From a virus: a DNA stretch of 64,000 nt. The stretch is taken from positions 27,276 to 91,275 of IMG/VR virus record IMGVR_UViG_3300014819_000003. The stretch is one strand, 5' to 3'. Within the stretch, counting starts at the first letter, position 1. Each line of letters starts with the position of its first letter. The notes below the pieces were generated by a model. That model saw only the letters and a list, made by a program, of their open reading frames with translations. It was not told where the DNA came from and searched no databases. Shown piece by piece: positions 8,533 to 27,642 of this stretch. The position numbers were made by a program, and so were the translations under genes.

Positions 8533-9258
8533 ATGGCTACTGAGATATATAAAATAGAAAAAATAAACTTGGTTGATGGAACAGAACTTGAAATAGTTCC
8601 ATTAAAAATTAAATACCTAAGAGAGTTTATGACAACATTTGATGCCATACGTGTAACAAAAAATGATCAAGAAGCAATATTAGTATTATCAGAATGTGTT
8701 AGAGTATGTATGAAACAATATCATCCATCTATATCTAAAACAATAGAAGATATTGAAGAAAATCTTGATCTTCCAACAGTATATAAAATATTAAATGTTG
8801 CTGCTGGCATTAAGGTGGATAAAAAATCAGAAGAGCCTGTAAAAGATCAAGCAACTAATAGTGGTCCAACCTGGGAAACATTAGACTTAGCAAATTTAGA
8901 ATCTGAGGTATTTTTGCTCGGTATTTGGAAAGACTATGATGAATTAGAAACTTCTATGTCTATGCCAGAACTTATGGCTACCATTTCAAGTAAGCGTGAA
9001 CTAGATTATGAAGAAAAGAAGTTCTTGGCAGCAATTCAGGGAGTAGACCTAGATGCTAACTCTAAGTCATCAGATGGCAAACAGCGAGGGCAGCAAGAAT
9101 GGGAAGACCTTAAAGCAAGAGTATTTAGTGGTGGTAAGGCAAGAGATGGAAATGACATTCTTGCACTTCAAGGACCTGCTGCTGAAAAGGCAGGGTTTGG
9201 TATTGGTATGGGTCTAGATTATGATGACCTACGTGATCCTTCAATAATGAAAAATTAA
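8533..9258 (+). CDS. Tail assembly chaperone, long (GT-like) form
   Basis: N-terminal ~110 aa paralogous to 9309..9638, plus C-terminal extension (WKDYDELETSMSMPEL); between tube and TMP. Confidence 0.75.
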   Translation: MATEIYKIEKINLVDGTELEIVPLKIKYLREFMTTFDAIRVTKNDQEAILVLSECVRVCMKQYHPSISKTIEDIEENLDLPTVYKILNVAAGIKVDKKSEEPVKDQATNSGPTWETLDLANLESEVFLLGIWKDYDELETSMSMPELMATISSKRELDYEEKKFLAAIQGVDLDANSKSSDGKQRGQQEWEDLKARVFSGGKARDGNDILALQGPAAEKAGFGIGMGLDYDDLRDPSIMKN

Positions 9259-9308: not shown

Positions 9309-9638
9309 ATGGCAACAACAACGTATGAGAGCCAAGAACTTTCCCTTATGGATGGTACGAAAATCACAGTGAGACCATTAAAAATCTCATTGCTTCGTCC
9401 TTTCATGACTAAGTTCGAAAAAGTGGCAGCGGTGGCAGACGATAACGAAAAGTCAATGACTCTTCTTGTCGAATGTGTGGAAATTGCTATGAAGCAGTTC
9501 AATCCAGAACTCGCTGATGTTAAGAAACTTGAGGAAGTTCTAGACCTTCCAACAGTTTATAAGATCATTGAGGCTGCTTCGGGGGTCAAACTCCAAGACG
9601 CATCTGCTTTGCTAAATGCAGCACTTGCAACAAACTAA
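9309..9638 (+). CDS. Tail assembly chaperone, short (G-like) form
   Basis: Directly before TMP; promoter TGCTATAAT 9274-9282 and SD GGAGG. Confidence 0.75.
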   Translation: MATTTYESQELSLMDGTKITVRPLKISLLRPFMTKFEKVAAVADDNEKSMTLLVECVEIAMKQFNPELADVKKLEEVLDLPTVYKIIEAASGVKLQDASALLNAALATN

Positions 9639-9663: not shown

Positions 9664-12600
9664 GTGGCTGATGTTAACGCAAATATTGGCGTACATATTG
9701 ACACCTCTGCAACTATTGCTCAACTCAAGGCACTACGTGCTGAGATATCTAGATTTAATCAATCTGTAATAAAATCAAGCGCTTCTGCTGCTATAGCACA
9801 GCGTGATCTACAAACCAACCTAGTAAATGCTATAAATGCCACTGGCAAATTCCATGCCAAGATGGGCTTAATTAGAACATCTACAGAGTCCTTTACACAT
9901 GCCCTTGAAACCAATAAACTTTCAATGCGTGAGTACTTCAGGTACGCTGGCGGGGCAAGTACAACATTCCGTAAACTATTTACAAAAGAATTTGACACTA
10001 TAAGTCAGGTTGCTGCAGACCGTGTAAAGAGAATGCAGACTCAATATGTTAAGTTGGGTCGTGATGCATCTGGAGCAATGAAGGCAATATCCATAACTCC
10101 TACAACCTTAAATATGAAGGACTATGGAACTCAAGTTGCAATGGCAGCACAGAGACAGGCACTTTTAAATCAATTATTGAAACAAGGATCAACTAATCTA
10201 TTAAATTTTGGTAAGAATACTCAATGGGCTGGTCGCCAGTTGATGGTTGGTTTTACAGTTCCACTAGCCTATCTTGGAACATCAGCAGCCAAAACATTTA
10301 TGGCAATTGAAGAACAGGTTATCAAATTTAAACGTGTTTATGGTGAAATGTTTACTACTTCAGACCAAACAAATAAGGCTTTAGAGGACGTTAGAAGGCT
10401 TGCTGAAGAATTTACAAAATATGGTGTTGCTGTAGAAAAAACAATTGAACTTGCAGCAAAGGCTGCTGCTACAGGTAAGATGGGTGCAGATCTTACTGCA
10501 CAGGTTGCAGAAGCAACAAGGCTTGCTGTTCTTGGTGGAGTTGAACAAGAAGAGGCTCTAGATACAACAATTTCATTAACAAATGCATTTGGAATAGCGG
10601 CTGCAGATTTAAGTAAAAAGATTGACTTCCTTAACGCAGTAGAAAACCAAACAGTTGTATCTATTGAAGATTTAACTATTGCAGTTCCAAAGGCTGGACC
10701 AGTTATTCAGCAACTAGGCGGTAATGTAGAAGACCTTGCATTCTTTTTAACTGCCATGAAAGAAGGTGGCATTAATGCATCTGAAGGTGCTAACGCTCTA
10801 AAGTCTGGTCTTGCATCTCTTATTAATCCAACAGATAAAGCATCCAAAATGTTGGGTGAGTTGGGAATTAATATTAAGGGAATTGTTGAAGCAAATAAAG
10901 GAAATGTAAAAGGCGTAGTTCTTGATTTTGCTGCAGCATTAGACACTCTTGATCCACTAAATCGTGCTCGTGCTATTGAACAATTATTTGGTAAATTCCA
11001 GTTTGCTCGTTTATCTACTTTATTTTCAAATGTTTCTAAAGAAGGAACACAGGCATCAAGGGTATTAGATTTAGCAACTGCATCAGTTGAAGAACTTGCT
11101 ATTATTTCAGAACGAGAATTAAAAGCAGTAGAAGATGCTATTGGAACAAATTTTAAAGAAGCAGTTCAGCAGTTAAGACTTGCTTTAGAGCCAATAGGAA
11201 AAGAATTTTTAAAAGTTATCACCCCTATAGCACAAACCATAGCAAACCTTTTAGATAAATTTAATAATCTTGGCGACGGAACAAAGAAATTTATTGTTAT
11301 TGCTACAACATTAGTAGGGGTAATAGGACCAACATTTTTGATGACATTTGGTTTGCTTGCTAACGCAGTTGCTAATATTATTAAATTATTTACAACAATG
11401 CGTGGTGGATTTTTAAGGCTTAAAGGTGGATCAGCAGTCCTTGCAGAACAAACAAATTATTTAACCAAAGAGCAAATGGAGGCAACAACTGTTGCTGCTG
11501 CTCTTGATCAAGCACATAATAGATTAACTCAAAGATTTACATCAGAGGCTGTAGCATTACAGAAACTAAGAGCAGCATTTGATAGTGCTTCTGCAGCGCA
11601 GGCAAGATTTGCTGCTACCAATCCAGGAATGATGATTCCAGGATTTAAAGGTGCAAAGAAATTTAATTTTGGAACCATGAAAGTTCCAGGGTATGCAAAA
11701 GGAACTGACACAGTACCTGCAATGCTTACACCTGGAGAAGCAGTTATTCCAGCAGACATAGCACAAGATGAAAGATTTAAACCAATCATTCAGGCACTAG
11801 TAACTGGAGATCTTCCAGGATATCAAGATGGAACTGAGGGAGTTGGTAAACAGTCTGGAAGAAAACTCAAACAAACAGTATTTTTTGATTTTGATGATAC
11901 CTTGGCTAGAAGCACATCTGCTATAGAACAATGGAAAGCAGAACGTGGAATCACTGGCAAGACTACACCAGAAATGTATGATGCATTTAATAAAGATGTT
12001 GTTGCTGGAAGAAAAGTTCCAATCATACAAGAAAATATTGATAAACTAAAAAGACTTCAGGCTGCTGGTGTTGATGTTAGAATTTTGACTGCTAGAACTG
12101 CAAATGAAACTAACTTAGAATCACTTAAAAAAGTTTTAGCATCAAATGGTGTAATAATCCAAGATAGTAAAATTCAATTAAATAATACTGGAGATACTGA
12201 TGCAAAATTTAAAGCATCACATATTAAGGGCTTTTTAAAAGATAATCCAGATTCTAGAGCACAGTTAATAGATGACAAAATAGAAAATGTAAAAGCAGTA
12301 AGAGCACTAAGTTCTGCAAAAGATATGTCTAAGAGATTTGGTGCTGTTGTTACCTCTGCTGCTGTCGAACCTGCCGAGTTTGTTAAGATGAAAGACGGAG
12401 TTCTTGGAGTTAAGTTCCAAGGAAGAACTTATCCAGTTGGAGAAAATGAAGCAAAAGCAAAAGCAGTTGTTACTAAACTCAATGATGAACTCGCTGCTCA
12501 AAAATCACAAGAAGGAAGAATTAAAACTGCAAACTGGGCAACAAACAGATTTGGGGAACTAGTAGATGCTAGAGACAAAGGTAGATTAATAAGCACATCA

Positions 12601-15600
12601 AGAATTTGGCGTAAAGAACGTGGTAGAGGTGGAATTAATTATGTAGTTAGAAAAGCGCTAAATGATCTTGCTGGTGGAAGCAGTTATGAAAACCTAATTA
12701 AGGCTCGTCAAAATTCGGAACAAAAACTTGTTATGCAGGCCTTGGAAGACTATCAAAAGAGGACTGGAAAAGCCTTAACACCAAAACAAATTGAGCAGGC
12801 TTTACAGATTCAAGCATCACATGTGTGGCCAAGTAAAGATGAAACAGGAAGACAACTTAAGTTTGATGATCCATTAAAATGGCAGCGTGGTCATGTATTT
12901 GATGATTTAGGAATTCTTAATAATTATTTGAATAGAACTGGAACAACTAGAACTGGTCAGCCTACAGCATTTCAGAAAGTTGCAGATGCATTTTTACAAG
13001 ATGATGAATTTACTAAACAATCTGGATTAAATAAACAACAACTTTATAAAGATTTAGAATGGGCTAGACAAAATAAACAACCAACAACAATGCAGGAACT
13101 GCAATCTATCAAGAGATTAGCAGAACTTGATCAAATAATGAGTAATGCTGGAGTTTATACAAATAAGTCAGTAATTGATAGACTTGGTATTCGTGGAGTT
13201 GGAAACTTACAGTCACTAGCGAATGGTATTTATCAAGCAGAAGTGTCTGGTAAATTAGTTGCTGCTCGTGGTCCAGAATGGGCTAAAGGACTTGCAGCGA
13301 GAATATTAGATTTAGCAAGTATGAAATCTGTAGCAAAAGGTGGAGCACCATTAGCAGAATATGATTTTGCTGTTGCTAGAGGAGAAAGAATAAAATCAAC
13401 TGCTGGATCACGTACAGTAACAGGTGCAACTGGAAGAAAGAAACCAGCATCTACTAAGGCTGTAGGTCCTTCGGCTGGTCCAAAAGATACCAGATTGATT
13501 ACATCAAAAGGCGTAAAGTCTATTACTCCAGTAAGAGTTGGTCGTTTTGCTTATGGAGCAGAGGGTGGATTTGGAGATCAACGTGTTGCTGGTTCAACTA
13601 CCGCTCAAGAAATAGCAAGAGAACGAAGAATAAGTCTTAATGAAGCAAAGAAACTTCTTGCACAAGAAAGAAAACTTGCTGAGGCAAGAGCAGCGGGTAC
13701 TGACGTAACAGAAGAATCTGGTAAAGCAACATCTCAAAAAACTGAACTAGATAAAAAACAATTACAGCAGATGAGATATGAAAGAGTTTCTAGAATATCA
13801 TCTCCAGTTGCAATGGCATCTGGAACTGCAGTTATGGCTGGAGCAATGATGGGAGCGCCAGAAGGATTTACAAAAATGATGCTAGGCGTTTCTGTTATTT
13901 CTTCAATCCTACCATTAATGACAAATCCATGGATGCTTGCAATTGCTGCAGTTGTAGGTACTGGTGCATTATTATTAAAATTTAATAATGATATAAAGAA
14001 GGCAAGAGAAGCAGGCATAAATCTTGCCAAAGCAATGACAATGAGTGCTGATGATGTAAAAGAATTAAGCATGATGACTGGAAAACCTAGTGCGTCAGAA
14101 ATTGCAGATAGACGTAGAAAAAATATTCTTGGTGGTGGAATAACAGAGCCACAACGTCAATTTGGTCAAAATGTTTTAGAAAGTGAATTTGGTAAAAAAT
14201 TATTGGCTGATGTTCAAACATTGTCTAAAACTGGAATGCAGCCAAAAGATGTTGCAAAAAATATTTCTACACAGTTAGGGCAAGCAGTTCTTCAAGGAGT
14301 AATAACTATGAAAGAAGCAGCAAGTATTGCTTCTGCTCTTGGAGAAAAATTAGGAAGTTATGAAATACCATTAAATATTACTGGTAATTTAAATCAAATA
14401 TTTGGTCCAAATGGAGAAAATTTAAAAACAGATCCATTAAGAATTGCTTTAGAAATTAAAAAAGATTCAATAAATACACAAGCACAAGCATTTCAACAAG
14501 CAATAGCAAATAGAAAACCAACAGTTGGCCTTGGTGCAGCACAAACTATTGGTGGTGCTACTGCTGCTGGTGCTGCAATTGGAGCAGGAATTGGTGCATT
14601 TGGAGGTCCATTTGCTCCAGTTACTGCCACTGGTGGTGCTGCTATTGGTGCTGTGGTTGGTGCAATTGGCGGTACTGGTGCAGCAATTATTAATGAAGGT
14701 GATAAAGCAAAAAATGCAAAGTTAGATGCGGCAGCACTTCAGTTAGGTATTGAACTTGTAGCACAAAACCAAGATCTTGTAGACTCACTTAATCAACAAT
14801 ATGATGTCAAAGTTAAACAGGCCAAGACAACTGCAGAAATAGATGCTATAGAAAAAGAACGTAAAGCAGCGGTAGATAGACTAAATGCAGAAAATACAAA
14901 AACACTACAGTTGTTGATTGAACAAAGAAAACAAATGGGCGACGGTACATTTAATGCTGCTATTAAGGCTGCAGCAGATGCAATGTATAAAGAAGGCCCA
15001 ATGGCTGTTTTCAAAGATCAGGCACTAGAAGCATTAAATTCTTTAGAGAGTTCAGATTTTAAAGCACAACTACAACTTGGTTTTGCATCTGGAGATATAG
15101 ATCCGCTTACATTAACAAATATATTAAACCTATCTGCACAAAATAAACCTATACAGCAAGATATACAATTTTTAATTAATACAGAAGGTTTTGCAGACAT
15201 GGCCGTGCTTACGCAACTTCTTAACTCAGTTGCTATTGATCCAAAAACAGGAAAAGCAGACCCACTAGTTTTTCAAACTATTTTAAGTTATATAAATAAA
15301 AATGAACAAACTTTTGATGAAGATCTTGAGGCAGTTCGTCGTATTGCTGATTTTAAAGGTGCATACAACGTAACACTAGACGCAAAAACAAATGGTATTG
15401 AAAAACTTCAAATTGCTACAACAGCATTAAAACAAATTGAAGATCTTCCAGAAAAAGTTACTAAACAAGCACTTATTGATGCAAATACAAACGGACAGTT
15501 TAATGATATTATTGCAAACTGGTCAGCACTTTCTCAAGGTAAAGATTTAATTAATAAAAATCTTATAGTAAATTATAAAGTCGGTGCAATAGATCCAAAT

Positions 15601-18600
15601 TTGCAAAATGCTGCTAAGGCTGCAAACCAAAGTGTTCCAGAATTTTTGGCTAAAGGGTTTGTTGCTCCAACACCAACTAATATTCCGCCAACAGAAACTC
15701 CTGGGCCTAAAAAGGGTAGAGATACAACACTTGATGAATTATTAAAAAGACTTAAGTTTATTCGCAAAGCATCTATTGATGCACAAGGAGGAGTAAAAGA
15801 ACTAGAAAGAATAACTGCTGGCAAAGGACTTACCAAGTTTAATGGAGTAGTACAACAACTTGCTGCTGGTCCAAAAGGTGGTTTTAATAGAGAGTTTATT
15901 TCATTCCTTGAGGGAATGGATAATGCAACTCGTAAAACATACATGACCATTAAAAATGGACAGGTCATTCTTACTAAACAAGGCAAGGCACTCAAAGAAG
16001 CATTTAATGAAAAAGTAATAGGTGAATATCAAGTAGCACAGTTCCAAGCAGTTCAGGATACTAAGGCTCAGGGTGCAGCACTTGCTAAATTACGTGCTGC
16101 TGGAATTGATTCTGCCACCGCTCTTGAAATGGTCGCTGACGCTAATCTTGCAGTAGCAATAAATAGCAAAAATATTTCATCTGCAGAACTTAAGAATATG
16201 GCTACACAAGCCCAGGAAGCAAAAGATAAAGTAAGAGAACTAAATCTTGAACTTCAAGGAACTGTTACAACAATGGTTGGTCGTGGTCAAGAACTAGATG
16301 AAACAATTAAAGTTATATCAAGAATAAAAGAAATAAATCCAAATGTTTCTTCTGAATTCCTACAGGCTCTTGCTTCTGATAAAACTGCTGTTCAAGGTTT
16401 TTATGATGCATTTTTCAAAGGTGCACAAAATAATGTACCTAATCTAAAAGATTATATAGATACATACTTTAAGAATAATCAATTAGAAGTAACTCTTAAA
16501 GGTATTTTAGATCCACAAGAACTTGTAAGACAGGCTCAAGAAGCATTTGATAAAGCATCATCTACTATTGATAAATATCTAAGTGCACAAAGAGCACAGG
16601 CAACTCTTCAGGTTGCACCACCAACACTAATGAATGAACTAGGTAGAAATCTACAAGTTGCACAAGATACATTAGTAGAAGCAGAAACAAATCTACAAAA
16701 TATAAAGGATGCAACTGGAAGAACTATAACAAACTATCAGTCCGAAATAGATGCCCTAAGACGAGAACTTGATGCTGGACTAGAAATAGAAATCAGAAAA
16801 CTTACTGAACAGATAAAGGCTGAACAGGATAAGATTGCTGCAGAATATGACAAGCCAATTGAAGGTCTTCGTAAGAACATTGAAAAAATTCAAAGAGATA
16901 TTGAGATTAATTTTACAAGACCAATTGAAGAGTTAAATAATCAAATTGATGATATTCAGCGAGGTATAGAACTAAACTTTGATCGTCCAATTGCTACACT
17001 ACAAGAAGAATCATCTGACCTATCTAATGAATTAACCTTGATGGATAAGGTTGCAGAGTCTATAAATAAGAAATATGATGAACAAGCAGCAGCCTTGCAA
17101 AAAGTTGCAGATATTAATCAAGAAATATCTGATCAACAAAAGGGACAATTAGATCTTGCTGGTGCATTAAGCCGTGGAGATGTTGCTGCTGCTGCTCAGG
17201 CTGCACAAGAGATGAGAGCACAGGCAGCGGCACGTGCAAAAGAACGAGCATCTGGAGTAATAGAAGCAGCAAGACAGGCAGAACTTGGAGGACTACGTTC
17301 TGCTACTGGAATGACCAGAGCACAAATAGAAGAACGTCAGTTCCAAATTAGCCAACAAATATTCCAACTTGAAGAACAAAAAGAAGCACAGTTAACTAAA
17401 GTAACTGAACTTCAAGATCAAATTTATGCTAAAACACAACTTCTTGAAGTTGAACAACGTAAGATTCGTGACCTTGAAGACCAGATTTATGCAAAAGAAG
17501 TTGCACGTCAAGCAGCACTAGATGCCTTAATTCCAAAGCAAGAACTATTAACAGATTTGGAAAAGAAACGTGCTGCCGCTCTTGAAAAGATTGCAGAAAA
17601 AGAAGATGCTATATCAAAAATTAAAAACTCACAAGCATATAAAGATGCTGAAAAGGCTGTTGCAGATGCTCAAAAGGCTGTAGATGCTGCTCAAAAGAAA
17701 CTTGATGATATTGAAAAGAAATTAAGAGATGCGCTTGCTAAAGTTGATGCACAACAAGCAAAATGGGACGATATTAAACTTGGTATTGAAGGTGCTCAAG
17801 GCGCTGTAAAAGACTTTGATGCAGAGTTAGCAAATGCAAAAATAGCAGCAGATAAATTAGCAAAGGCAATTGCTAGTGTTGTTTCTGCAGATGCAAACAT
17901 TACTGGCGCTGATGTATTTGGAAATGGTTTAGGTACAAGTACGGTTACAGATGAATATGGATTAGATCCAAAAGATCCAGACTATCAAGAAAAACGTAGA
18001 GCAAGACAGGGTATTGGAATGGGTGCAGGTACAAAAACTGCAACAAAAGAAACTGCAACAAAGGCTCTTGCAACCAACCTTAATTCAGCAGCAACTTCTG
18101 CTACAGTTGTTCAAACAGCACTAGGAAAAATAGCAGAACTATCTAAACTTTCTGCTGTAGATCAAGAAAAGATTGCAACCTCTATTGTAAAACAGGCAGA
18201 ACAGTCTGGACTGTTAAAGAGTGCAGAAGAAGCAATAACTCAGTTTATTAAAGATCAGGTGACCCCATCAGAACAAATAGCAACTAATACTAAGAATATG
18301 CTTGATTCTTTAGTTGCTGCAATAGTACCAGCCAATACAATTGCTGGAATATTTAATTCAATTTTAAGCACTGCAAATGCAATTTATCAAAGAATCTTAA
18401 GTTGGAATACAACAGTAACAACAGTACATAATATTATAGAAAATGTAACAAGAAACATTACAGAATATATAACACAAATAATTAAACAAGTAGTTGATAC
18501 TGGTCCAGGTAAGATGTATGGTGGAAAGATTACTGGATACATGGGTGGAGGTATGGTAAAGCCAATGTATCTTGCTGGTGGTGGCGCTATTGGATCTGAT

Positions 18601-18987
18601 ACCGTGCCAGCGATGCTAACTCCTGGTGAGTTTGTTGTTAATAAAGCATCTTCACAAGCATTTGCTCCTTTCTTAACAGCAATTAATGAAAGTAAATATC
18701 CTTCAATTTTGGCTAAAAATATATCAAATGCTAGACCAATATATCAAATTCCAATACAAACATCTTTATCTCAGCCATCATATGATATATCCTCTCCAGT
18801 ATTTAGTGCATCTCCAACAAATATTGCAAATGCTGCCTATAACGATAACTCCAGTTCAGTGTATAATTATAGTGTTGGAATTAGTGTTGGTGGAACAAAT
18901 GCTTCTCCAGATACAATAGCAAAGGCAGTAATGAACGAAATTAAATATCTAGACTCTCAGCGAGTTAAAAGTCAGAAGGTTTCATAA
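9664..18987 (+). CDS. Tape measure protein with internal HAD-like domain
   Basis: 3107 aa; TP901-type TMP core, two DTVPAMLTPGE motifs, hydrophobic segments, long coiled coils; FFDFDDT..LTAR..K..IDD insert. Confidence 0.92.
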   Translation: MADVNANIGVHIDTSATIAQLKALRAEISRFNQSVIKSSASAAIAQRDLQTNLVNAINATGKFHAKMGLIRTSTESFTHALETNKLSMREYFRYAGGASTTFRKLFTKEFDTISQVAADRVKRMQTQYVKLGRDASGAMKAISITPTTLNMKDYGTQVAMAAQRQALLNQLLKQGSTNLLNFGKNTQWAGRQLMVGFTVPLAYLGTSAAKTFMAIEEQVIKFKRVYGEMFTTSDQTNKALEDVRRLAEEFTKYGVAVEKTIELAAKAAATGKMGADLTAQVAEATRLAVLGGVEQEEALDTTISLTNAFGIAAADLSKKIDFLNAVENQTVVSIEDLTIAVPKAGPVIQQLGGNVEDLAFFLTAMKEGGINASEGANALKSGLASLINPTDKASKMLGELGINIKGIVEANKGNVKGVVLDFAAALDTLDPLNRARAIEQLFGKFQFARLSTLFSNVSKEGTQASRVLDLATASVEELAIISERELKAVEDAIGTNFKEAVQQLRLALEPIGKEFLKVITPIAQTIANLLDKFNNLGDGTKKFIVIATTLVGVIGPTFLMTFGLLANAVANIIKLFTTMRGGFLRLKGGSAVLAEQTNYLTKEQMEATTVAAALDQAHNRLTQRFTSEAVALQKLRAAFDSASAAQARFAATNPGMMIPGFKGAKKFNFGTMKVPGYAKGTDTVPAMLTPGEAVIPADIAQDERFKPIIQALVTGDLPGYQDGTEGVGKQSGRKLKQTVFFDFDDTLARSTSAIEQWKAERGITGKTTPEMYDAFNKDVVAGRKVPIIQENIDKLKRLQAAGVDVRILTARTANETNLESLKKVLASNGVIIQDSKIQLNNTGDTDAKFKASHIKGFLKDNPDSRAQLIDDKIENVKAVRALSSAKDMSKRFGAVVTSAAVEPAEFVKMKDGVLGVKFQGRTYPVGENEAKAKAVVTKLNDELAAQKSQEGRIKTANWATNRFGELVDARDKGRLISTSRIWRKERGRGGINYVVRKALNDLAGGSSYENLIKARQNSEQKLVMQALEDYQKRTGKALTPKQIEQALQIQASHVWPSKDETGRQLKFDDPLKWQRGHVFDDLGILNNYLNRTGTTRTGQPTAFQKVADAFLQDDEFTKQSGLNKQQLYKDLEWARQNKQPTTMQELQSIKRLAELDQIMSNAGVYTNKSVIDRLGIRGVGNLQSLANGIYQAEVSGKLVAARGPEWAKGLAARILDLASMKSVAKGGAPLAEYDFAVARGERIKSTAGSRTVTGATGRKKPASTKAVGPSAGPKDTRLITSKGVKSITPVRVGRFAYGAEGGFGDQRVAGSTTAQEIARERRISLNEAKKLLAQERKLAEARAAGTDVTEESGKATSQKTELDKKQLQQMRYERVSRISSPVAMASGTAVMAGAMMGAPEGFTKMMLGVSVISSILPLMTNPWMLAIAAVVGTGALLLKFNNDIKKAREAGINLAKAMTMSADDVKELSMMTGKPSASEIADRRRKNILGGGITEPQRQFGQNVLESEFGKKLLADVQTLSKTGMQPKDVAKNISTQLGQAVLQGVITMKEAASIASALGEKLGSYEIPLNITGNLNQIFGPNGENLKTDPLRIALEIKKDSINTQAQAFQQAIANRKPTVGLGAAQTIGGATAAGAAIGAGIGAFGGPFAPVTATGGAAIGAVVGAIGGTGAAIINEGDKAKNAKLDAAALQLGIELVAQNQDLVDSLNQQYDVKVKQAKTTAEIDAIEKERKAAVDRLNAENTKTLQLLIEQRKQMGDGTFNAAIKAAADAMYKEGPMAVFKDQALEALNSLESSDFKAQLQLGFASGDIDPLTLTNILNLSAQNKPIQQDIQFLINTEGFADMAVLTQLLNSVAIDPKTGKADPLVFQTILSYINKNEQTFDEDLEAVRRIADFKGAYNVTLDAKTNGIEKLQIATTALKQIEDLPEKVTKQALIDANTNGQFNDIIANWSALSQGKDLINKNLIVNYKVGAIDPNLQNAAKAANQSVPEFLAKGFVAPTPTNIPPTETPGPKKGRDTTLDELLKRLKFIRKASIDAQGGVKELERITAGKGLTKFNGVVQQLAAGPKGGFNREFISFLEGMDNATRKTYMTIKNGQVILTKQGKALKEAFNEKVIGEYQVAQFQAVQDTKAQGAALAKLRAAGIDSATALEMVADANLAVAINSKNISSAELKNMATQAQEAKDKVRELNLELQGTVTTMVGRGQELDETIKVISRIKEINPNVSSEFLQALASDKTAVQGFYDAFFKGAQNNVPNLKDYIDTYFKNNQLEVTLKGILDPQELVRQAQEAFDKASSTIDKYLSAQRAQATLQVAPPTLMNELGRNLQVAQDTLVEAETNLQNIKDATGRTITNYQSEIDALRRELDAGLEIEIRKLTEQIKAEQDKIAAEYDKPIEGLRKNIEKIQRDIEINFTRPIEELNNQIDDIQRGIELNFDRPIATLQEESSDLSNELTLMDKVAESINKKYDEQAAALQKVADINQEISDQQKGQLDLAGALSRGDVAAAAQAAQEMRAQAAARAKERASGVIEAARQAELGGLRSATGMTRAQIEERQFQISQQIFQLEEQKEAQLTKVTELQDQIYAKTQLLEVEQRKIRDLEDQIYAKEVARQAALDALIPKQELLTDLEKKRAAALEKIAEKEDAISKIKNSQAYKDAEKAVADAQKAVDAAQKKLDDIEKKLRDALAKVDAQQAKWDDIKLGIEGAQGAVKDFDAELANAKIAADKLAKAIASVVSADANITGADVFGNGLGTSTVTDEYGLDPKDPDYQEKRRARQGIGMGAGTKTATKETATKALATNLNSAATSATVVQTALGKIAELSKLSAVDQEKIATSIVKQAEQSGLLKSAEEAITQFIKDQVTPSEQIATNTKNMLDSLVAAIVPANTIAGIFNSILSTANAIYQRILSWNTTVTTVHNIIENVTRNITEYITQIIKQVVDTGPGKMYGGKITGYMGGGMVKPMYLAGGGAIGSDTVPAMLTPGEFVVNKASSQAFAPFLTAINESKYPSILAKNISNARPIYQIPIQTSLSQPSYDISSPVFSASPTNIANAAYNDNSSSVYNYSVGISVGGTNASPDTIAKAVMNEIKYLDSQRVKSQKVS

Positions 18988-19635: not shown

Positions 19636-22600
19636 GTGTTTGTAAGTGAAGCATTAAAGACCCATCTTGAAACATCAGCAACAATAAACTTACAGTCTTT
19701 AGTTTTGGCTGAGTGGAATATGAATATGCCAGATAATATTTTTAAGGTTGGAAACTATCGATATAGACCTACAACAACTGGCTCTATATATAGAACACTC
19801 CCATCCACATTTGATCAGTTAGATGCTGGTAACTACTATACTGGCGCTACTGATGCAGATGTAGTTATAGATGGTGGTTTTGATAATACTGGTACACCAC
19901 AACAATTTACATTAACTAAAGATAAAATGAAAATGATTTATTCTTTAGAAGATTGTTTAAAACCATTTAGACCTAGATCTGGAATTAATAAAGCCTTATA
20001 TGTTTCTGGTAGATATCTTGCAAATTCTGGAGCAAATCTTGCAGAGCGTCCAAGATACTATATGCCATCAAGATATGATCAATTTAGATACTGGACTTCT
20101 TATAGAACAGAAGAAGGCGCTGAATATGGAATTGCAAAAAATGTATCAAATGGATTATATTTTATTGATGATGCCGTTCCATTTGTTGTTTATAAAGAAC
20201 CAGTTCCAGTAAACAGAGTTGTAGTAAAAATGCAAACAAATGTTGGATCTGTAGACCTTGGTCCATTTGCTACAAACACAGGAAGCATTAGCGATCCTTT
20301 ATTTGGAGATGCTAATAAAACAACTCCAGCAAGATGGAAAATTCAATATCTTGATGGAACAAACTGGACTGATCTATACGTAATTAATGAGTTTGATACA
20401 AGAGATAACGAAACAAATTCTTCTATTATAAGTTCAGATGGATATGTTGAATTAGAATACGGACTAATCATTCCAGATGCATATAAAGATATTTTTATAT
20501 TTGCAGAACAACTATCATCAGATACTATGCTTCCAGAATCCAATATTACTGGATATGCATATTTAATTGTAGAAAACGATGGAGAAGTTGGAACCTTTCA
20601 TATTTGGACTGGCACAGAATATGAAACATTTACTCCAACATATGGTTGGTCTCTTGGGTCTGAAACAATAACAAATCAAACAAACTTTGTAAATGATTTA
20701 ACATCTCCGCAAACATTTACTGATGGAGTTGGCGGCGGTACAAAGTATAGACAATTTCAATACCTAAAGGGATTACGCATAGTAGTAGATACTATGAATA
20801 AACTAGATTCAACATTTGATCTTATTGAAATGTCACCACGTTTAGTAGTAGATATATCTGATAAGGTTATTGACTATAGAGTAACAAAGATGCTCTCTGA
20901 TCTTGGAAATAGTTCTATTCCAGTAGGTCAACTACTCGCATCAACTGGACAGATGACAATGTTTGATGATGATCAAGCCTTTAATGATAATAATACTAAT
21001 AGCATAGTTTCTAACTACCTCCGTAAAAATATAAAATTTAATTTCTATGAAAAAATTATAAATGTTGATGGCTTTGATTATTTTATACCAATTAAAACTT
21101 TATACTCAGATGGTTTTCCACAAGCAGACGTTACTGGGGCAACAGTTTCTTTAGGACTAAGAGACTTTTATTTCTTTTTAGAGTCAATGCCAGCACCAAG
21201 ACTATTGATGACTGAAACCTCATTAAGCATGGCCGTATCAACGCTTTTAGATTATATTGGTTTTTCAAATTATACTTTTAGAAGAGTAACTGGTGAATCA
21301 GATCCTGTAATACCATTTTTCTTTGTTGCACCAGATCAAAGCGTTGCAGAGGTCTTAAACCAATTAGCAATAGCAACACAGACAGCAATGTTCTTTGATG
21401 AATACAATAACTTTATTGTAATGAGCAAAGACTATTTGCTTCCAGAGTCAGGAAATCGTAGCACTGATTTTATATTATCTGGATCAAATAATCAAACAGA
21501 TAATGGAGTTATTAAAAACTCAACATCTGGAAATCTTCCAAATATAATTTCAATATCTTCGCAGGATAAAAAAATATATAATGATGGCAAAATTACATAT
21601 ACTACAAGATATATTCAAAGAACTTTTGGTGTAAGAAAACAAGCAGATAAGTTAGAATCTGAACAAACATGGATTTACCTACCATCACTGCTATGGGAAG
21701 TTGCTGGTACTGAAGAAACCAGATCAAGAAACAATGCAGCACAACAGGCAAGTGCTTATGCTTTAGGTGCTATTCCAATTAACTCCTCCTTAACATCTTC
21801 AGTTCCATCTGTATCTAATGGTGCTGTAATAAATAACATTATGGATCTTGGAGAGGGAATATTTTATTTGCCAAGGTATCAAGGATACTTCTATTCTAAT
21901 GGAGAGATTATAAAATTTGATGCAGTTCAATTTAATATAACTGGAACTGGAAATGTATGGATTAGTAGTAATCAAGAATATCAGAGATACTTTGCTTCCC
22001 TGCCATTTAACGGAAAGATCTATCCTACAGGGCTAGTTAGAATATATTCCTTGCCATACTATGAGACGGTAGATGGAAATACAAGAATGAAATCTGGAGC
22101 AGTCTATCAACATGGTCGTGGACAATTTGGAACACCAGTTGTAGAACATACTGCTGGTATCAATGAGTATTGGACAAATAATGATTATGTTCGTGGTTGT
22201 GATATGCAAACTCAGTATTTATTTACAACTGTATTAGATGAAGATATAAATCCTCCATCTACAACAGTGGCTGCTGCTGGACAAAATAATACACTGGCTA
22301 GACAAACAACTAGAAATGGTATTATAAAAAATTTTATGGCAACAAACTATTTAACAGAAACACAAGTTAATAACTTAAAAAGCACTCAATCTGGAACTAT
22401 ACAGTCCTCTGCTTTTGTTATGAATGGCCCATCTTTTAAAACTACAGAAACACCATTAAACTTTGTTTCATACGTTTATAAAAATTTAGATAATGCATAC
22501 AGGCACTTTGGAACAAGATTAAGAATCATAGGCAAGATTGAAAACAATGAAGTTCGTGGACAAACTCCAATTGGCAGCACTCCATATTTCCAAATTACTG

Positions 22601-23955
22601 GATCTGGTACAAATCAAAATATTAGCATAGGTGGAGGATCTGGTGGTCTAGCAGTTCTTCTAAATCCAGAAACAAACAATGGATACTATTTTGAGATAGT
22701 TGCCCTTACAGAAAATAATATAGAGCAATACCTAAAGCGTGACAGTAAAACTGGTCAAGCGCAGGTATCTGTAAACAATATAGTTTTTTATAAAGTAAAA
22801 AAGGACTCATCAAACAACAATGCCATTCCTATTAAACTTTGGGGTGGCCTAACAAATATATTAGTAGATGATGGAAGATTTACTGGACAGTATAGAAGGA
22901 CGGCAGAAGAAAATCCAACAGTATATGATTTGTCCGTAGAGTATCAAGATATAGGAAACTTTAGAAGATTCTATCTATATATAAACAATAAGTTAATTAA
23001 AATTGTTGATGATAAAGATCCACTTCCAGTTTATAATAACATGGCTCTTTTTGTAAGAGGATCTTCAAGATGTATGTTTGAAAATATATATGCCTTAACA
23101 AATAATTATGCACAAAATACTGTATTTACAGTTGGAGAAACTTTGTCAAGTGCTTTTGGAGATAAAGAGATTGATGCTAATGAATCATTAAGAAAATATG
23201 CAATGAGTGGTATTGTTCAATCTACATACCTGTCTGGAATTAGTACGCAACAGCCACCTAAATACAATATGTACTTTGATGAGTTCGGCAGTATTATGCG
23301 TGAGTGTGCATATTTTGATATTAGATATGATCGTGCGTACCCTGCTCTTTATGCAAAAATAGCACCGACATTTAATAGAATGAAAGGCTATAGCATATCT
23401 GGATTTCAGGCTGATTCATATGGAGCAGAATTTTTAGTGTTTAACACTACGGATACTGTACTAGTTCTTGATGATACAAGTGGTAACTATTTAAGAATTT
23501 TAGGTATAACATTTACCCAAGATACAACACATGAATTATCTGTTGATGAATACTTTAAAAAGAAAAGCAATTTATCAGATCCAGAATTTGAAGGTGATTC
23601 AATAACCACTTCTGCCTTAGTAGAAAAATCTAAATATGATGAGATAAAACTAAGTAGATTGATATATGGTAAAAGTGAATTTGCTTTAGAAAGTCAATAC
23701 ATTCAGTCTCAAGATGATGCAGAAAGTATACTTGGATGGATTATAAATAAAACTAAAGATCCAAAAAAGGCAATAGGTTTAGAGGTGTTTACAATTCCTA
23801 CCTTGCAGTTAGGTGACATTGTTACAGTTACATATCAAAATAATGACGGTCTAGATTTAGTTACAGATTCGGAAACAAGATTTGTAGTATATAATATTGA
23901 TTATTCTAGATCAAATGCTGGACCAAGTATGACTTTATATTTGAGTGAGGTGTAG
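19636..23955 (+). CDS. Tail tip/baseplate hub protein
   Basis: 1439 aa after Dit; C-terminal YIQSQDDA..PTLQLGDIVTV hub motif. Confidence 0.7.
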   Translation: MFVSEALKTHLETSATINLQSLVLAEWNMNMPDNIFKVGNYRYRPTTTGSIYRTLPSTFDQLDAGNYYTGATDADVVIDGGFDNTGTPQQFTLTKDKMKMIYSLEDCLKPFRPRSGINKALYVSGRYLANSGANLAERPRYYMPSRYDQFRYWTSYRTEEGAEYGIAKNVSNGLYFIDDAVPFVVYKEPVPVNRVVVKMQTNVGSVDLGPFATNTGSISDPLFGDANKTTPARWKIQYLDGTNWTDLYVINEFDTRDNETNSSIISSDGYVELEYGLIIPDAYKDIFIFAEQLSSDTMLPESNITGYAYLIVENDGEVGTFHIWTGTEYETFTPTYGWSLGSETITNQTNFVNDLTSPQTFTDGVGGGTKYRQFQYLKGLRIVVDTMNKLDSTFDLIEMSPRLVVDISDKVIDYRVTKMLSDLGNSSIPVGQLLASTGQMTMFDDDQAFNDNNTNSIVSNYLRKNIKFNFYEKIINVDGFDYFIPIKTLYSDGFPQADVTGATVSLGLRDFYFFLESMPAPRLLMTETSLSMAVSTLLDYIGFSNYTFRRVTGESDPVIPFFFVAPDQSVAEVLNQLAIATQTAMFFDEYNNFIVMSKDYLLPESGNRSTDFILSGSNNQTDNGVIKNSTSGNLPNIISISSQDKKIYNDGKITYTTRYIQRTFGVRKQADKLESEQTWIYLPSLLWEVAGTEETRSRNNAAQQASAYALGAIPINSSLTSSVPSVSNGAVINNIMDLGEGIFYLPRYQGYFYSNGEIIKFDAVQFNITGTGNVWISSNQEYQRYFASLPFNGKIYPTGLVRIYSLPYYETVDGNTRMKSGAVYQHGRGQFGTPVVEHTAGINEYWTNNDYVRGCDMQTQYLFTTVLDEDINPPSTTVAAAGQNNTLARQTTRNGIIKNFMATNYLTETQVNNLKSTQSGTIQSSAFVMNGPSFKTTETPLNFVSYVYKNLDNAYRHFGTRLRIIGKIENNEVRGQTPIGSTPYFQITGSGTNQNISIGGGSGGLAVLLNPETNNGYYFEIVALTENNIEQYLKRDSKTGQAQVSVNNIVFYKVKKDSSNNNAIPIKLWGGLTNILVDDGRFTGQYRRTAEENPTVYDLSVEYQDIGNFRRFYLYINNKLIKIVDDKDPLPVYNNMALFVRGSSRCMFENIYALTNNYAQNTVFTVGETLSSAFGDKEIDANESLRKYAMSGIVQSTYLSGISTQQPPKYNMYFDEFGSIMRECAYFDIRYDRAYPALYAKIAPTFNRMKGYSISGFQADSYGAEFLVFNTTDTVLVLDDTSGNYLRILGITFTQDTTHELSVDEYFKKKSNLSDPEFEGDSITTSALVEKSKYDEIKLSRLIYGKSEFALESQYIQSQDDAESILGWIINKTKDPKKAIGLEVFTIPTLQLGDIVTVTYQNNDGLDLVTDSETRFVVYNIDYSRSNAGPSMTLYLSEV

Positions 23956-27154: not shown

Positions 27155-27642
27155 TTAAAGGTAATAAAAAGATTTGGTTTCTTAATGGTGACCTTGTAAG
27201 ACTTTATCATAGTTCTAGATCAACAGGAATGGTAACTGTTTATAATATTACAAAAGATAGATTGGAAACTTGCTTGCGATACGATTTTAGAAAAAATAGA
27301 GAAAGAGCGTTCACTGTATCAGAAACTGCTCAACTTGTCAATAGGCATCGTAAATATTTTCCATCATTAGTGAAAAAAGGAATTATTCCACCACCTATGG
27401 GATCACAGCCTGGAGGGGTTCGTGGTTGGCAAATAAGAGCATATTATTCCGAATCGCAAGTTAAAGAGATTCGTGATATACTCGCTAGTTATCATCTAGG
27501 TAGACCTAGAAAAGATAAGTTAATTACAAATGGAATTACACCAACAAAGCAAGAGTTGACACGCAGAATTGGTGATGGTATACTGACATATACGAAAACT
27601 GAAGATGGAAGATTTGTTCCAGTTTGGTCAGAAAAGATTTAG
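27100..27642 (+). CDS. MerR-like helix-turn-helix DNA-binding protein
   Basis: FTVSETAQLVNRH..GIIPPP..RAYYSESQV; SD AAGGAGG. Confidence 0.65.
   Translation: MAHGPRNIESKDYNNKPVIKGNKKIWFLNGDLVRLYHSSRSTGMVTVYNITKDRLETCLRYDFRKNRERAFTVSETAQLVNRHRKYFPSLVKKGIIPPPMGSQPGGVRGWQIRAYYSESQVKEIRDILASYHLGRPRKDKLITNGITPTKQELTRRIGDGILTYTKTEDGRFVPVWSEKI
27556..27584 (+). promoter_or_regulatory. Sigma-A-type promoter for replication genes
   Basis: TTGACA-N17-TATACT with extended TG, inside 3' end of HTH gene. Confidence 0.7.

Follow-up and report, generated by a model that had tools for sequence, protein, structure and literature searches.

An optional, predicted HAD phosphatase occupies a slot, filled by a different enzyme family in other phages, in the tape measure protein of a siphophage

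We analysed a 64,000-nt stretch of viral DNA (IMG/VR record IMGVR_UViG_3300014819_000003, positions 27,276 to 91,275; hereafter the window) and found that its tape measure protein (TMP) carries an inserted cassette which is, by its motifs and its predicted fold, an intact DxDxT-class HAD phosphatase domain. The cassette directly follows a conserved internal segment, here called a joint. It is optional among related TMPs, and in two other phages the same place is taken by a PF01467 (cytidylyltransferase-like) domain. We favour, with modest confidence, the reading that the joint delimits a cargo slot, which in this phage would hold a predicted Pnkp-like phosphomonoesterase for delivery at infection. 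The coordinates of all features are collected in Table 1.

The open reading frame (ORF) at 9664-18987 is a genuine TMP, as indicated by its PF10145 domain, its length and its position between chaperone-like and distal tail genes. It starts with GTG, 8 nt past a GAGAGG ribosome-binding site. PF10145 (TP901 family) scores 91.3 bits against a cut-off of 33.2, and phrog_10030 (“tail length tape measure protein”) matches at E 4.5e-102. Genes for the portal, the prohead protease, an Ig-domain protein and two chaperone-like products lie on its 5' side, and minor tail protein genes follow on its 3' side. The phage is an uncultured siphophage of roughly 91 kb with a modular TMP; its record is 91,275 bp long, with a CheckV completeness of 84%, and the window covers the right-hand 64 kb. 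The N-terminal 640 residues of the TMP share 90% identity with those of P0005, a database TMP of 3,116 aa, and the N-terminal ~630-640 residues share ~29% identity with TMPs of Streptomyces and Gordonia phages. Searches of cultured phages (50,697 records) by blastn and tblastn, with the region and with the HAD, gave no match.

The HAD assignment is carried by both sequence conservation and structure prediction. In an alignment of 70 sequences of the HAD family (A3), the invariant columns coincide exactly with the catalytic set of HADs, which corresponds to D742, D744, T746, T809, A810, R811, K850, D870 and D871 of the TMP, and the window HAD keeps all 13 family-invariant residues. The initial annotation had recognised a full HAD motif set inside the TMP from the sequence alone, and alignment and model both bear it out; all the motifs it quoted lie no more than 3 nt from where it had placed them, and only QASHVWP, further downstream, is shifted (12811 versus 12808). 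In PHROGs, phrog_415 (named “polynucleotide kinase”) matches TMP aa 734-881 at E 6.4e-14, and the nearest solo relatives of the window HAD match this family as well. A phmmer search with the HAD core against 1.84 billion representatives returned 6 proteins at E <= 1e-3, one of which is the window's own cluster; the remaining five are small proteins of 191-351 aa, and no other TMP was found. With a profile built from these relatives, more than 1,600 proteins of ~195 aa were recovered, most of them of aquatic metagenomic origin. The HAD sequence has no significant match in the PDB, and NCBIfam gave sub-threshold HAD matches only.

The AlphaFold (AF2) model of the cassette (pLDDT 80, pTM 0.76) shows an alternating strand-helix core, with low confidence only in the short cap. 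All listed Foldseek matches to this model are HAD-superfamily phosphatases. In the VIA-align comparison, for which the 1,000 top-ranked Foldseek chains were realigned (341 reach Z >= 8, and rows within 1 Z count as tied), the best match is the 3'-phosphatase domain of T4 Pnkp (5uj0_B; Z 13.1, root-mean-square deviation 2.8 Å, 131 aligned residues), followed by Pnkp1 of the Pnkp1-Rnl-Hen1 repair complex (4xru_D; Z 12.3). The T4 Pnk 3'-phosphatase, which had been named as an example of a DxDxT HAD, is thus among the best structural matches. Other HADs score Z ~10-12.3, including a capsule-polymerase HAD that is tied within 1 Z of the top.

The cassette is optional among related TMPs. Within a set of 34 database TMPs similar to aa 690-1290, the HAD is present only in P0005, which shares 58% identity with the window TMP over that range, and in the 100%-identical P0004. 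In the others, the alignment covers aa 690-730 and resumes at aa ~915-1040, leaving ~190 residues without a counterpart; these relatives go directly from the [FY]xxGT motif (PGYQDGT in the window) to VxFxGxxY (GVKFQGRTY in the window). IMG/VR holds at least 558 related TMP loci, and none of the best 80, which were read (L002-L081), matched the hidden Markov model of the HAD family. Between the window and P0005, the HAD segment aligns ungapped at 71% identity with all invariant residues kept, compared with 66% for the joint and 55% for the following segments; we read this higher conservation as a sign of selection on the HAD. A tree built from 328 HAD domains pairs the TMP copies of the window and P0005 as sisters (support 1.0) on a long branch nested among the ~195-aa solo proteins. 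A recent horizontal origin of the cassette was considered and rejected on two grounds: the G+C profile stays flat over the cassette, and the branch leading to the HAD is long.

The same slot accepts other contents. The conserved domain downstream of the cassette begins at aa ~730-745, directly after the joint, in 15 loci; it begins ~75 residues later, after a filler with no assignment, in L003, L004 and L023, and at aa 904 in L038 and L040. The insert of the latter two is 170 aa long, runs from just after FSKGT to VTLFDKEY, which are the boundaries of the HAD cassette, and matches PF01467 over the full length of the model (27.9 bits; cut-off 21). It lies at L040:5173-5715:+ in a TMP of 4,353 aa and at the same place in the 3,554-aa TMP of L038. 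It contains FTSAH and SATKLR, which we take to be forms of the two signature motifs of the PF01467 superfamily; against the PDB, phmmer gave spurious ankyrin-like matches only. Judged by sequence, the TMP slot takes a different enzyme in other phages, PF01467 in place of the HAD. The initial annotation had envisaged a swappable effector slot in which the bracketed segment is exchanged for other enzymes. This idea stands as far as the HAD is inserted at a defined slot and is absent or replaced by PF01467 at the same boundaries in related TMPs, but most fillers have no recognisable enzyme. Ten representative variable regions scanned with Pfam yielded glycine zippers but no enzyme. With one clear second enzyme, the slot does not amount to a broad repertoire.

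The TMPs of L002-L081 range from ~2,385 to 4,353 aa. The stretch that separates the first joint from the second hydrophobic region measures ~180 to ~860 aa in these TMPs, and its sequences form at least 15 mutually unrelated clusters.

The joints that delimit the slot are conserved features of this TMP family. Of 81 family TMPs, 77 have the internal joint at aa ~690, and F667, G670, G676, D682, P690, G691, E692 and G723 are invariant across 18 related TMPs. G1298 and A1299, in the GRFAYGA motif that closes the module zone, are invariant in the same 18, so that the short [FY]xxG motifs first noticed as brackets around the insert proved to be family features. The window TMP contains 7 [FY]xxG[TAS] motifs, compared with 2.9 +/- 1.7 in shuffled sequences. 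DTVPAMLTPGE occurs at aa 682 and again at aa 2979, as had been noticed before; the two joint copies are paralogous (E 2e-9; 47% identity over 43 aa). Many synonymous differences separate the codons of the identical 11-mers, which indicates that the peptide is under selection and was not recently duplicated. The joint motif is also found near the C-terminus of most family TMPs; most of them have both joints, and three copies are present in L040 (aa 691, 3229 and 4283) and in L072-L076. Among cultured phages, it is present in the TMPs of Nodularia, Paracoccus, Stenotrophomonas and Pseudanabaena phages.

Phage lambda gpH is cleaved to gpH* and gpHC near a glycine-rich region, although the published site is imprecise (PMC12617516). 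Residues 732-771 of gpH (L202, gene H; FATGG...GEFVFTKEA) align in register with a 96-copy joint profile at 1.0 bit, which ranks 5/501 in a comparison with 500 shuffles and is not significant, and BLASTP gives E 0.5. A link between the joint and lambda gpH is thus still only a lead.

A HAD of the same family has reached a TMP a second time. A degenerate DNA pattern for FDFDDTLA identified at least 120 IMG/VR loci (L082-L201); among the matches listed, L166:1862-10978:- is a TMP of 3,039 aa with PF10145 at aa 131-314 and no detectable similarity to the window TMP outside the joints. It carries the HAD at aa ~1057-1201, and its joints lie after the HAD, DTVPATLREGDFV at aa 1380 and DTVPAMLTPGEFV at aa 2860. 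In the 328-domain tree, the L166 HAD falls in a different clade from the window HAD, so this HAD family has entered TMPs on at least two occasions. A search of all 120 listed pattern loci for PGE-type joints found them in L166 only. Likewise, in a scan of the 13 largest HAD-pattern ORFs among the matches listed, PF10145 was present in L166 only and absent from the other 12.

The segment that follows the cassette (aa 913-1300) had been described as a second piece of enzymatic cargo, possibly a His-Me nuclease. Neither proposal was upheld: the segment is a conserved TMP domain that is not exchanged among near relatives, and no fold, profile or family search links it to His-Me nucleases. It is present in every near relative (all 30-odd database relatives), and a profile finds it in ~28 of the 80 IMG/VR loci, always directly after the joint or the joint's insert; more distant TMPs have unrelated sequence in its place. 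QASHVWP lies at aa 1050 (nt 12811) and WQRGHVFDDLGILNNYLN at aa 1073-1090. Across 22 diverse copies, only L1027, G1035, H1053, P1140, A1153 and R1202 are invariant; W1073, D1081, N1086 and Y1088 are near-invariant, N1086 being kept in 20 of the 22 and replaced by Gly in L007 and L014. The model (pLDDT 74, above 82 for aa 1019-1214) is mostly helical; a strand ending at H1053 is followed by a variable loop, then by another strand and the helix GILNNYLN. No match was found in Pfam, in NCBIfam or in the PDB by phmmer or by profile, and a lambda-repressor-like match (E 0.08) was dismissed. Foldseek against the PDB gave no nuclease (best E 0.5), and neither did VIA-align (best Z 4.5, to unrelated folds), but a motif as small as this one could escape such comparisons. 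The ESM Atlas gave unnamed viral clusters only, and the only match in BFVD is another TMP. We regard aa 913-1300 as a domain specific to TMPs, probably with a functional His; it is not cargo swapped at close range.

The company that the HAD family keeps elsewhere provides circumstantial support for an early, injected activity directed at nucleotides or RNA. Longer family proteins are fused to a nucleotidyltransferase (NTase) palm of the Pol-beta type, PF14792 (~40 of 120 among the matches listed), and further fusion partners are PF01467, CCA/poly(A)-polymerase heads (PF01743), RNase T (PF00929), 2H (PF13563) and NUDIX; in PHROGs, cytidyltransferase/NMNAT-like domains occur in two fusion proteins of the family. 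In a comparison of jumbo phages, “Swiss-army-knife” HADs were assigned to the removal of linear phosphates from broken RNA ends (RNA 3'-phosphate) (PMC7824862). Most of the at least 120 pattern loci lie in ORFs longer than 1,000 aa (median 1,178 among the matches listed), many of them far inside ORFs of 2-3.4 kaa; in giant ORFs of 1.5-3.4 kaa the HAD sits at aa ~1,000-2,600, for example in L088:3687-13808:+ and L082:4309-14091:+. The giant HAD-bearing ORFs that are not TMPs have almost no Pfam or PHROG matches and no cultured-phage match. They resemble virion-delivered polyvalent proteins (PMC5512222), and they are probably polyvalent injected proteins that are not TMP-like. In the alignment consensus of the giant HAD ORFs, a zincin-like GxHExxH motif is seen together with a long stretch of conservation at the C-terminus, and one of these ORFs carries a kinase of the AAA_33/Zeta-toxin type.

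In the reading that we favour, the slot directly follows the internal joint ([FY]xxGT...DTVPAMLTPGE...[FY]xxGT) and holds a 188-aa cassette that is a predicted HAD phosphomonoesterase. The HAD would ride in the tail as part of the TMP, probably incompletely folded in the lumen, would exit the tail with the TMP at infection and would then refold. It would remove a phosphate from a nucleic-acid end or a nucleotide before phage gene expression, and this activity would serve as a pre-made takeover or counter-defence function. The substrate is the weakest step of the proposed mechanism.

Several observations weigh against this reading. The Pfam HAD models stay below their cut-offs (Acid_phosphat_B at 22.5 bits; PF18143 HAD_SAK_2 at 18.2, with a cut-off of 27.5). 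The window HAD is without the DYSEF-type cap segment that is near-invariant in the solo family, a difference from its relatives that may extend to its specificity. The Z lead of T4 Pnkp over other HADs is small, ~1-2 units, with some rows tied, and “Pnkp-like” is therefore a best guess and not a membership call. The 91-kb record, at 84% completeness, contains no PF09414 RNA ligase and no AAA_33/PF13671 Pnk-type kinase, though the controls for these searches matched, and no PF01467 gene; PF09511 (Rnl1) also had no match in the record, but its controls matched nowhere. The window TMP itself has no kinase domain. With neither an RNA ligase nor a Pnk-type kinase detected, a self-contained heal-and-seal pathway is weakened. 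A phmmer comparison of the L040 insert with the NTase domains that occur in HAD-family fusions revealed no similarity. Finally, three to six folded HADs of 18 kDa would not fit side by side in a lumen of 3-4 nm, so this reading has to assume that they are unfolded or staggered, or that cleavage comes first.

A wider version of the proposal is that the joints of giant siphophage TMPs form a general protein-injection platform for small Rossmann-type enzymes of nucleotides or RNA ends, drawn from the RNA-repair toolkit of phages, such as the Pnkp-like 3'-phosphatase of the window and the HIGH-motif NTase of L038/L040. These enzymes would be threaded in a non-native state, would refold in the cytoplasm ahead of the DNA and would neutralise RNA-cutting or nucleotide-based defences before gene expression. 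We regard this generalisation as tentative and rather doubtful.

Other explanations of the cassette have to be weighed. During passage of the TMP through the wall, the HAD may act outside the cytoplasm on an envelope substrate, which could be a lipid carrier, a phosphorylated sugar or a phosphate of a wall polymer. TMP-borne envelope enzymes are an established case (TM4 TMP, PMC1796659; T5 pb2C, PMC12617516). The HAD lies in the N-terminal quarter of the TMP, between the hydrophobic segments at aa 542-576 and 1422-1440, so that either face of the membrane is possible, and a capsule-polymer HAD (8a0m) and class B/C acid phosphatases score within 1-2 Z of the top. However, the fusion partners of the HAD family are enzymes of nucleotides and nucleic acids, not of the envelope, and Pfam scans gave no signal of a wall-binding module beside the HAD. 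HAD enzymes are moreover monoesterases, for which the phosphodiester links of wall polymers are not a usual target, and we consider an envelope role unlikely. It is less likely still that the HAD is a protein phosphatase (phospho-Tyr/Ser/Asp) injected against a kinase- or phosphorelay-based host response. The HAD protein phosphatases MDP-1, Legionella Lem4 and Ceg4 are structural neighbours at Z ~11, but they score below the Pnkp-type matches, no link exists at the sequence level, and the family fusions point to nucleotides and RNA.

It is similarly improbable that the cassette is never delivered, either because it is clipped at the adjacent joint during tail assembly, as the C-terminal piece of lambda gpH is, or because it works only in the producing cell. 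Cleavage in assembly is known for lambda gpH and T5 pb2 (PMC12617516), the joint lies directly N-terminal of the cassette, and a folded HAD is hard to fit in the tube. Nevertheless, the cassette is internal, with ~2,200 conserved TMP residues after it, including the tip-proximal C-terminal joint, so excision would need two cuts; the resemblance of the joint to lambda gpH is not significant; and the TMP-borne enzyme of phage P23-45 was found in virions (PMC10770324). The least likely alternative reverses the roles of the two segments: the HAD would be a decayed or structural filler without catalysis, and aa 1019-1214 would be a His-Me finger nuclease. The predicted strand that ends in invariant H1053, together with the loop, second strand and helix bearing N1086, N1087 and Y1088, is indeed beta-beta-alpha-like. 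Against this, the catalytic residues of the HAD are all retained in a segment more conserved than its flanks, N1086 is Gly in two loci, and none of the sequence and structure searches described above found a nuclease.

Delivery at infection, the reading that we favour, has its closest precedent, by analogy, in Thermus phage P23-45. The N-terminal part of its 5,002-aa TMP (gp96) is an active, injected virion RNA polymerase (PMC10770324), which is a precedent for delivery of a cytoplasmic enzyme by the head-proximal part of a TMP. In both cases an enzyme that acts in the cytoplasm (here as proposed) resides in the N-terminal part of a giant siphophage TMP and is proposed to act at DNA entry. The two differ in that the P23-45 enzyme is an RNA polymerase of ~1,100 aa at the extreme N-terminus, conserved in its group and shown to be active, whereas the window enzyme is a predicted HAD phosphatase of 165 aa, internal at a joint-delimited slot and optional among relatives. 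Like the phosphatase of T4 Pnkp and Pnkp1 (5uj0, 1ltq, 4xru), its best structural matches, it has a DxDxT HAD fold with a minimal cap, and the Arg two residues past the motif II Thr/Ser (TAR in the window) aligns with SGR of Pnkp1 (LSGR), at a weak E value. Unlike T4 Pnkp, a soluble early enzyme, the window HAD is embedded in a structural protein and has no fused 5'-kinase and no partner ligase detected in the record, and the sequence similarity between the two is not significant. It belongs to the same sequence family as the “Swiss-army-knife” or phrog_415 HADs of phages (PMC7824862; PF18143, PF11019). Those HADs are free or fused to NTase, NUDIX, exonuclease or 2H domains, whereas the window copy lies in a TMP, is without DYSEF and falls under the PF18143 cut-off.

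The TMPs of mycobacteriophage TM4 (PMC1796659) and of phage T5 (pb2) contain peptidoglycan hydrolase motifs. As proposed for the window, these are enzymatic modules inside a TMP that are dispensable for tail assembly and act during entry, but they act on the wall, whereas the window enzyme is a predicted phosphatase from a family associated with nucleotides and RNA. A large delivered polypeptide with exchangeable domains is also seen in polyvalent proteins (PMC5512222) and in the effectors Sle1 and Tme (PMC13277306, PMC11126660). Polyvalent proteins are delivered from the head or by a type IV secretion system, and their description mentions neither TMPs nor phosphatases (PMC5512222). Sle1 and Tme, which are TMP-related and modular, belong to contractile injection systems and not to phage tails.

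Further features of the TMP and its surroundings were recorded. The second hydrophobic segment lies in a region conserved across the TMP family, and in L046 a stretch comparable to the glycine-zipper-like segment at aa 1650-1677 matches a Pfam Gly-zipper family. Upstream of the TMP gene, the adjacent genes at 8533-9258 and 9309-9638 both match phrog_10504 over their first ~100 aa; the pair resembles duplicated tail-chaperone-like genes, and not an obvious G/GT frameshift arrangement. Downstream, a gene for a 215-aa product separates the TMP gene from 19636-23955, which encodes a 1,439-aa minor tail protein that matches phrog_10359 in four stretches, suggesting internal repeats.

Table 1. Features of the TMP gene in window coordinates, with residue numbers of the TMP and columns of alignment A3.
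Feature	Position (nt)	Strand	Details
TMP gene P0001	9664..18987	+	uninterrupted ORF, 3,107 aa
PF10145 PhageMin_Tail core	10402..10992	+	aa 247-443, within the conserved N-terminal 640 aa
First hydrophobic segment	11287..11391	+	aa 542-576; Kyte-Doolittle scan
Internal joint	11626..11835	+	aa 655-724: KKFNFGT (665), PGYAKGT (675), DTVPAMLTPGEAVIP...PGYQDGT (718)
Inserted cassette, predicted HAD phosphatase domain	11836..12399	+	aa 725-912 (188 aa); core aa 735-897, nt 11866-12354
HAD motif I, FFDFDDT	11881..11901	+	aa 740-746; nucleophile D742, acid/base D744, T746; A3 columns D13, D15, T17
HAD motif II, ILTART	12082..12099	+	aa 807-812; T809, invariant R811; A3 columns T80, A81, R82
HAD motif III lysine, DAKFK	12199..12213	+	aa 846-850; K850; A3 column K121
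HAD motif IV, LIDD	12265..12276	+	aa 868-871; D870 and D871; A3 columns D141, D142
Conserved TMP domain (“QxSH domain”)	12400..13563	+	aa 913-1300; confident core aa 1019-1214, nt 12718-13305
GRFAYGA motif closing the module zone	13540..13560	+	starts at aa 1293; invariant G1298, A1299
Second hydrophobic segment	13927..13983	+	aa 1422-1440; Kyte-Doolittle scan
Glycine-zipper-like hydrophobic segment	14611..14694	+	aa 1650-1677; Kyte-Doolittle scan
C-terminal joint	18511..18699	+	aa 2950-3012, including DTVPAMLTPGEFVVNK

Taken together, the exchange of a HAD for a PF01467 domain in the same slot and the independent capture of a HAD in L166 appear, from the sequence comparisons, to be new here; our literature search found no paper on a HAD phosphatase or a nucleotidyltransferase inside a TMP. 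TMPs are usually regarded as rulers and channel formers, at most with a wall hydrolase, and P23-45 is the one published TMP with a cytoplasmic enzyme. The HAD cassette, the PF01467 swap and the L166 capture would make this single case a pattern, and they suggest that the tail lumen is a delivery route for pre-made enzymes. Such a route would bear on how globular domains are stored in a tube of 3-4 nm and on the rule that relates TMP length to tail length, as well as on how phages survive the first minutes of infection.

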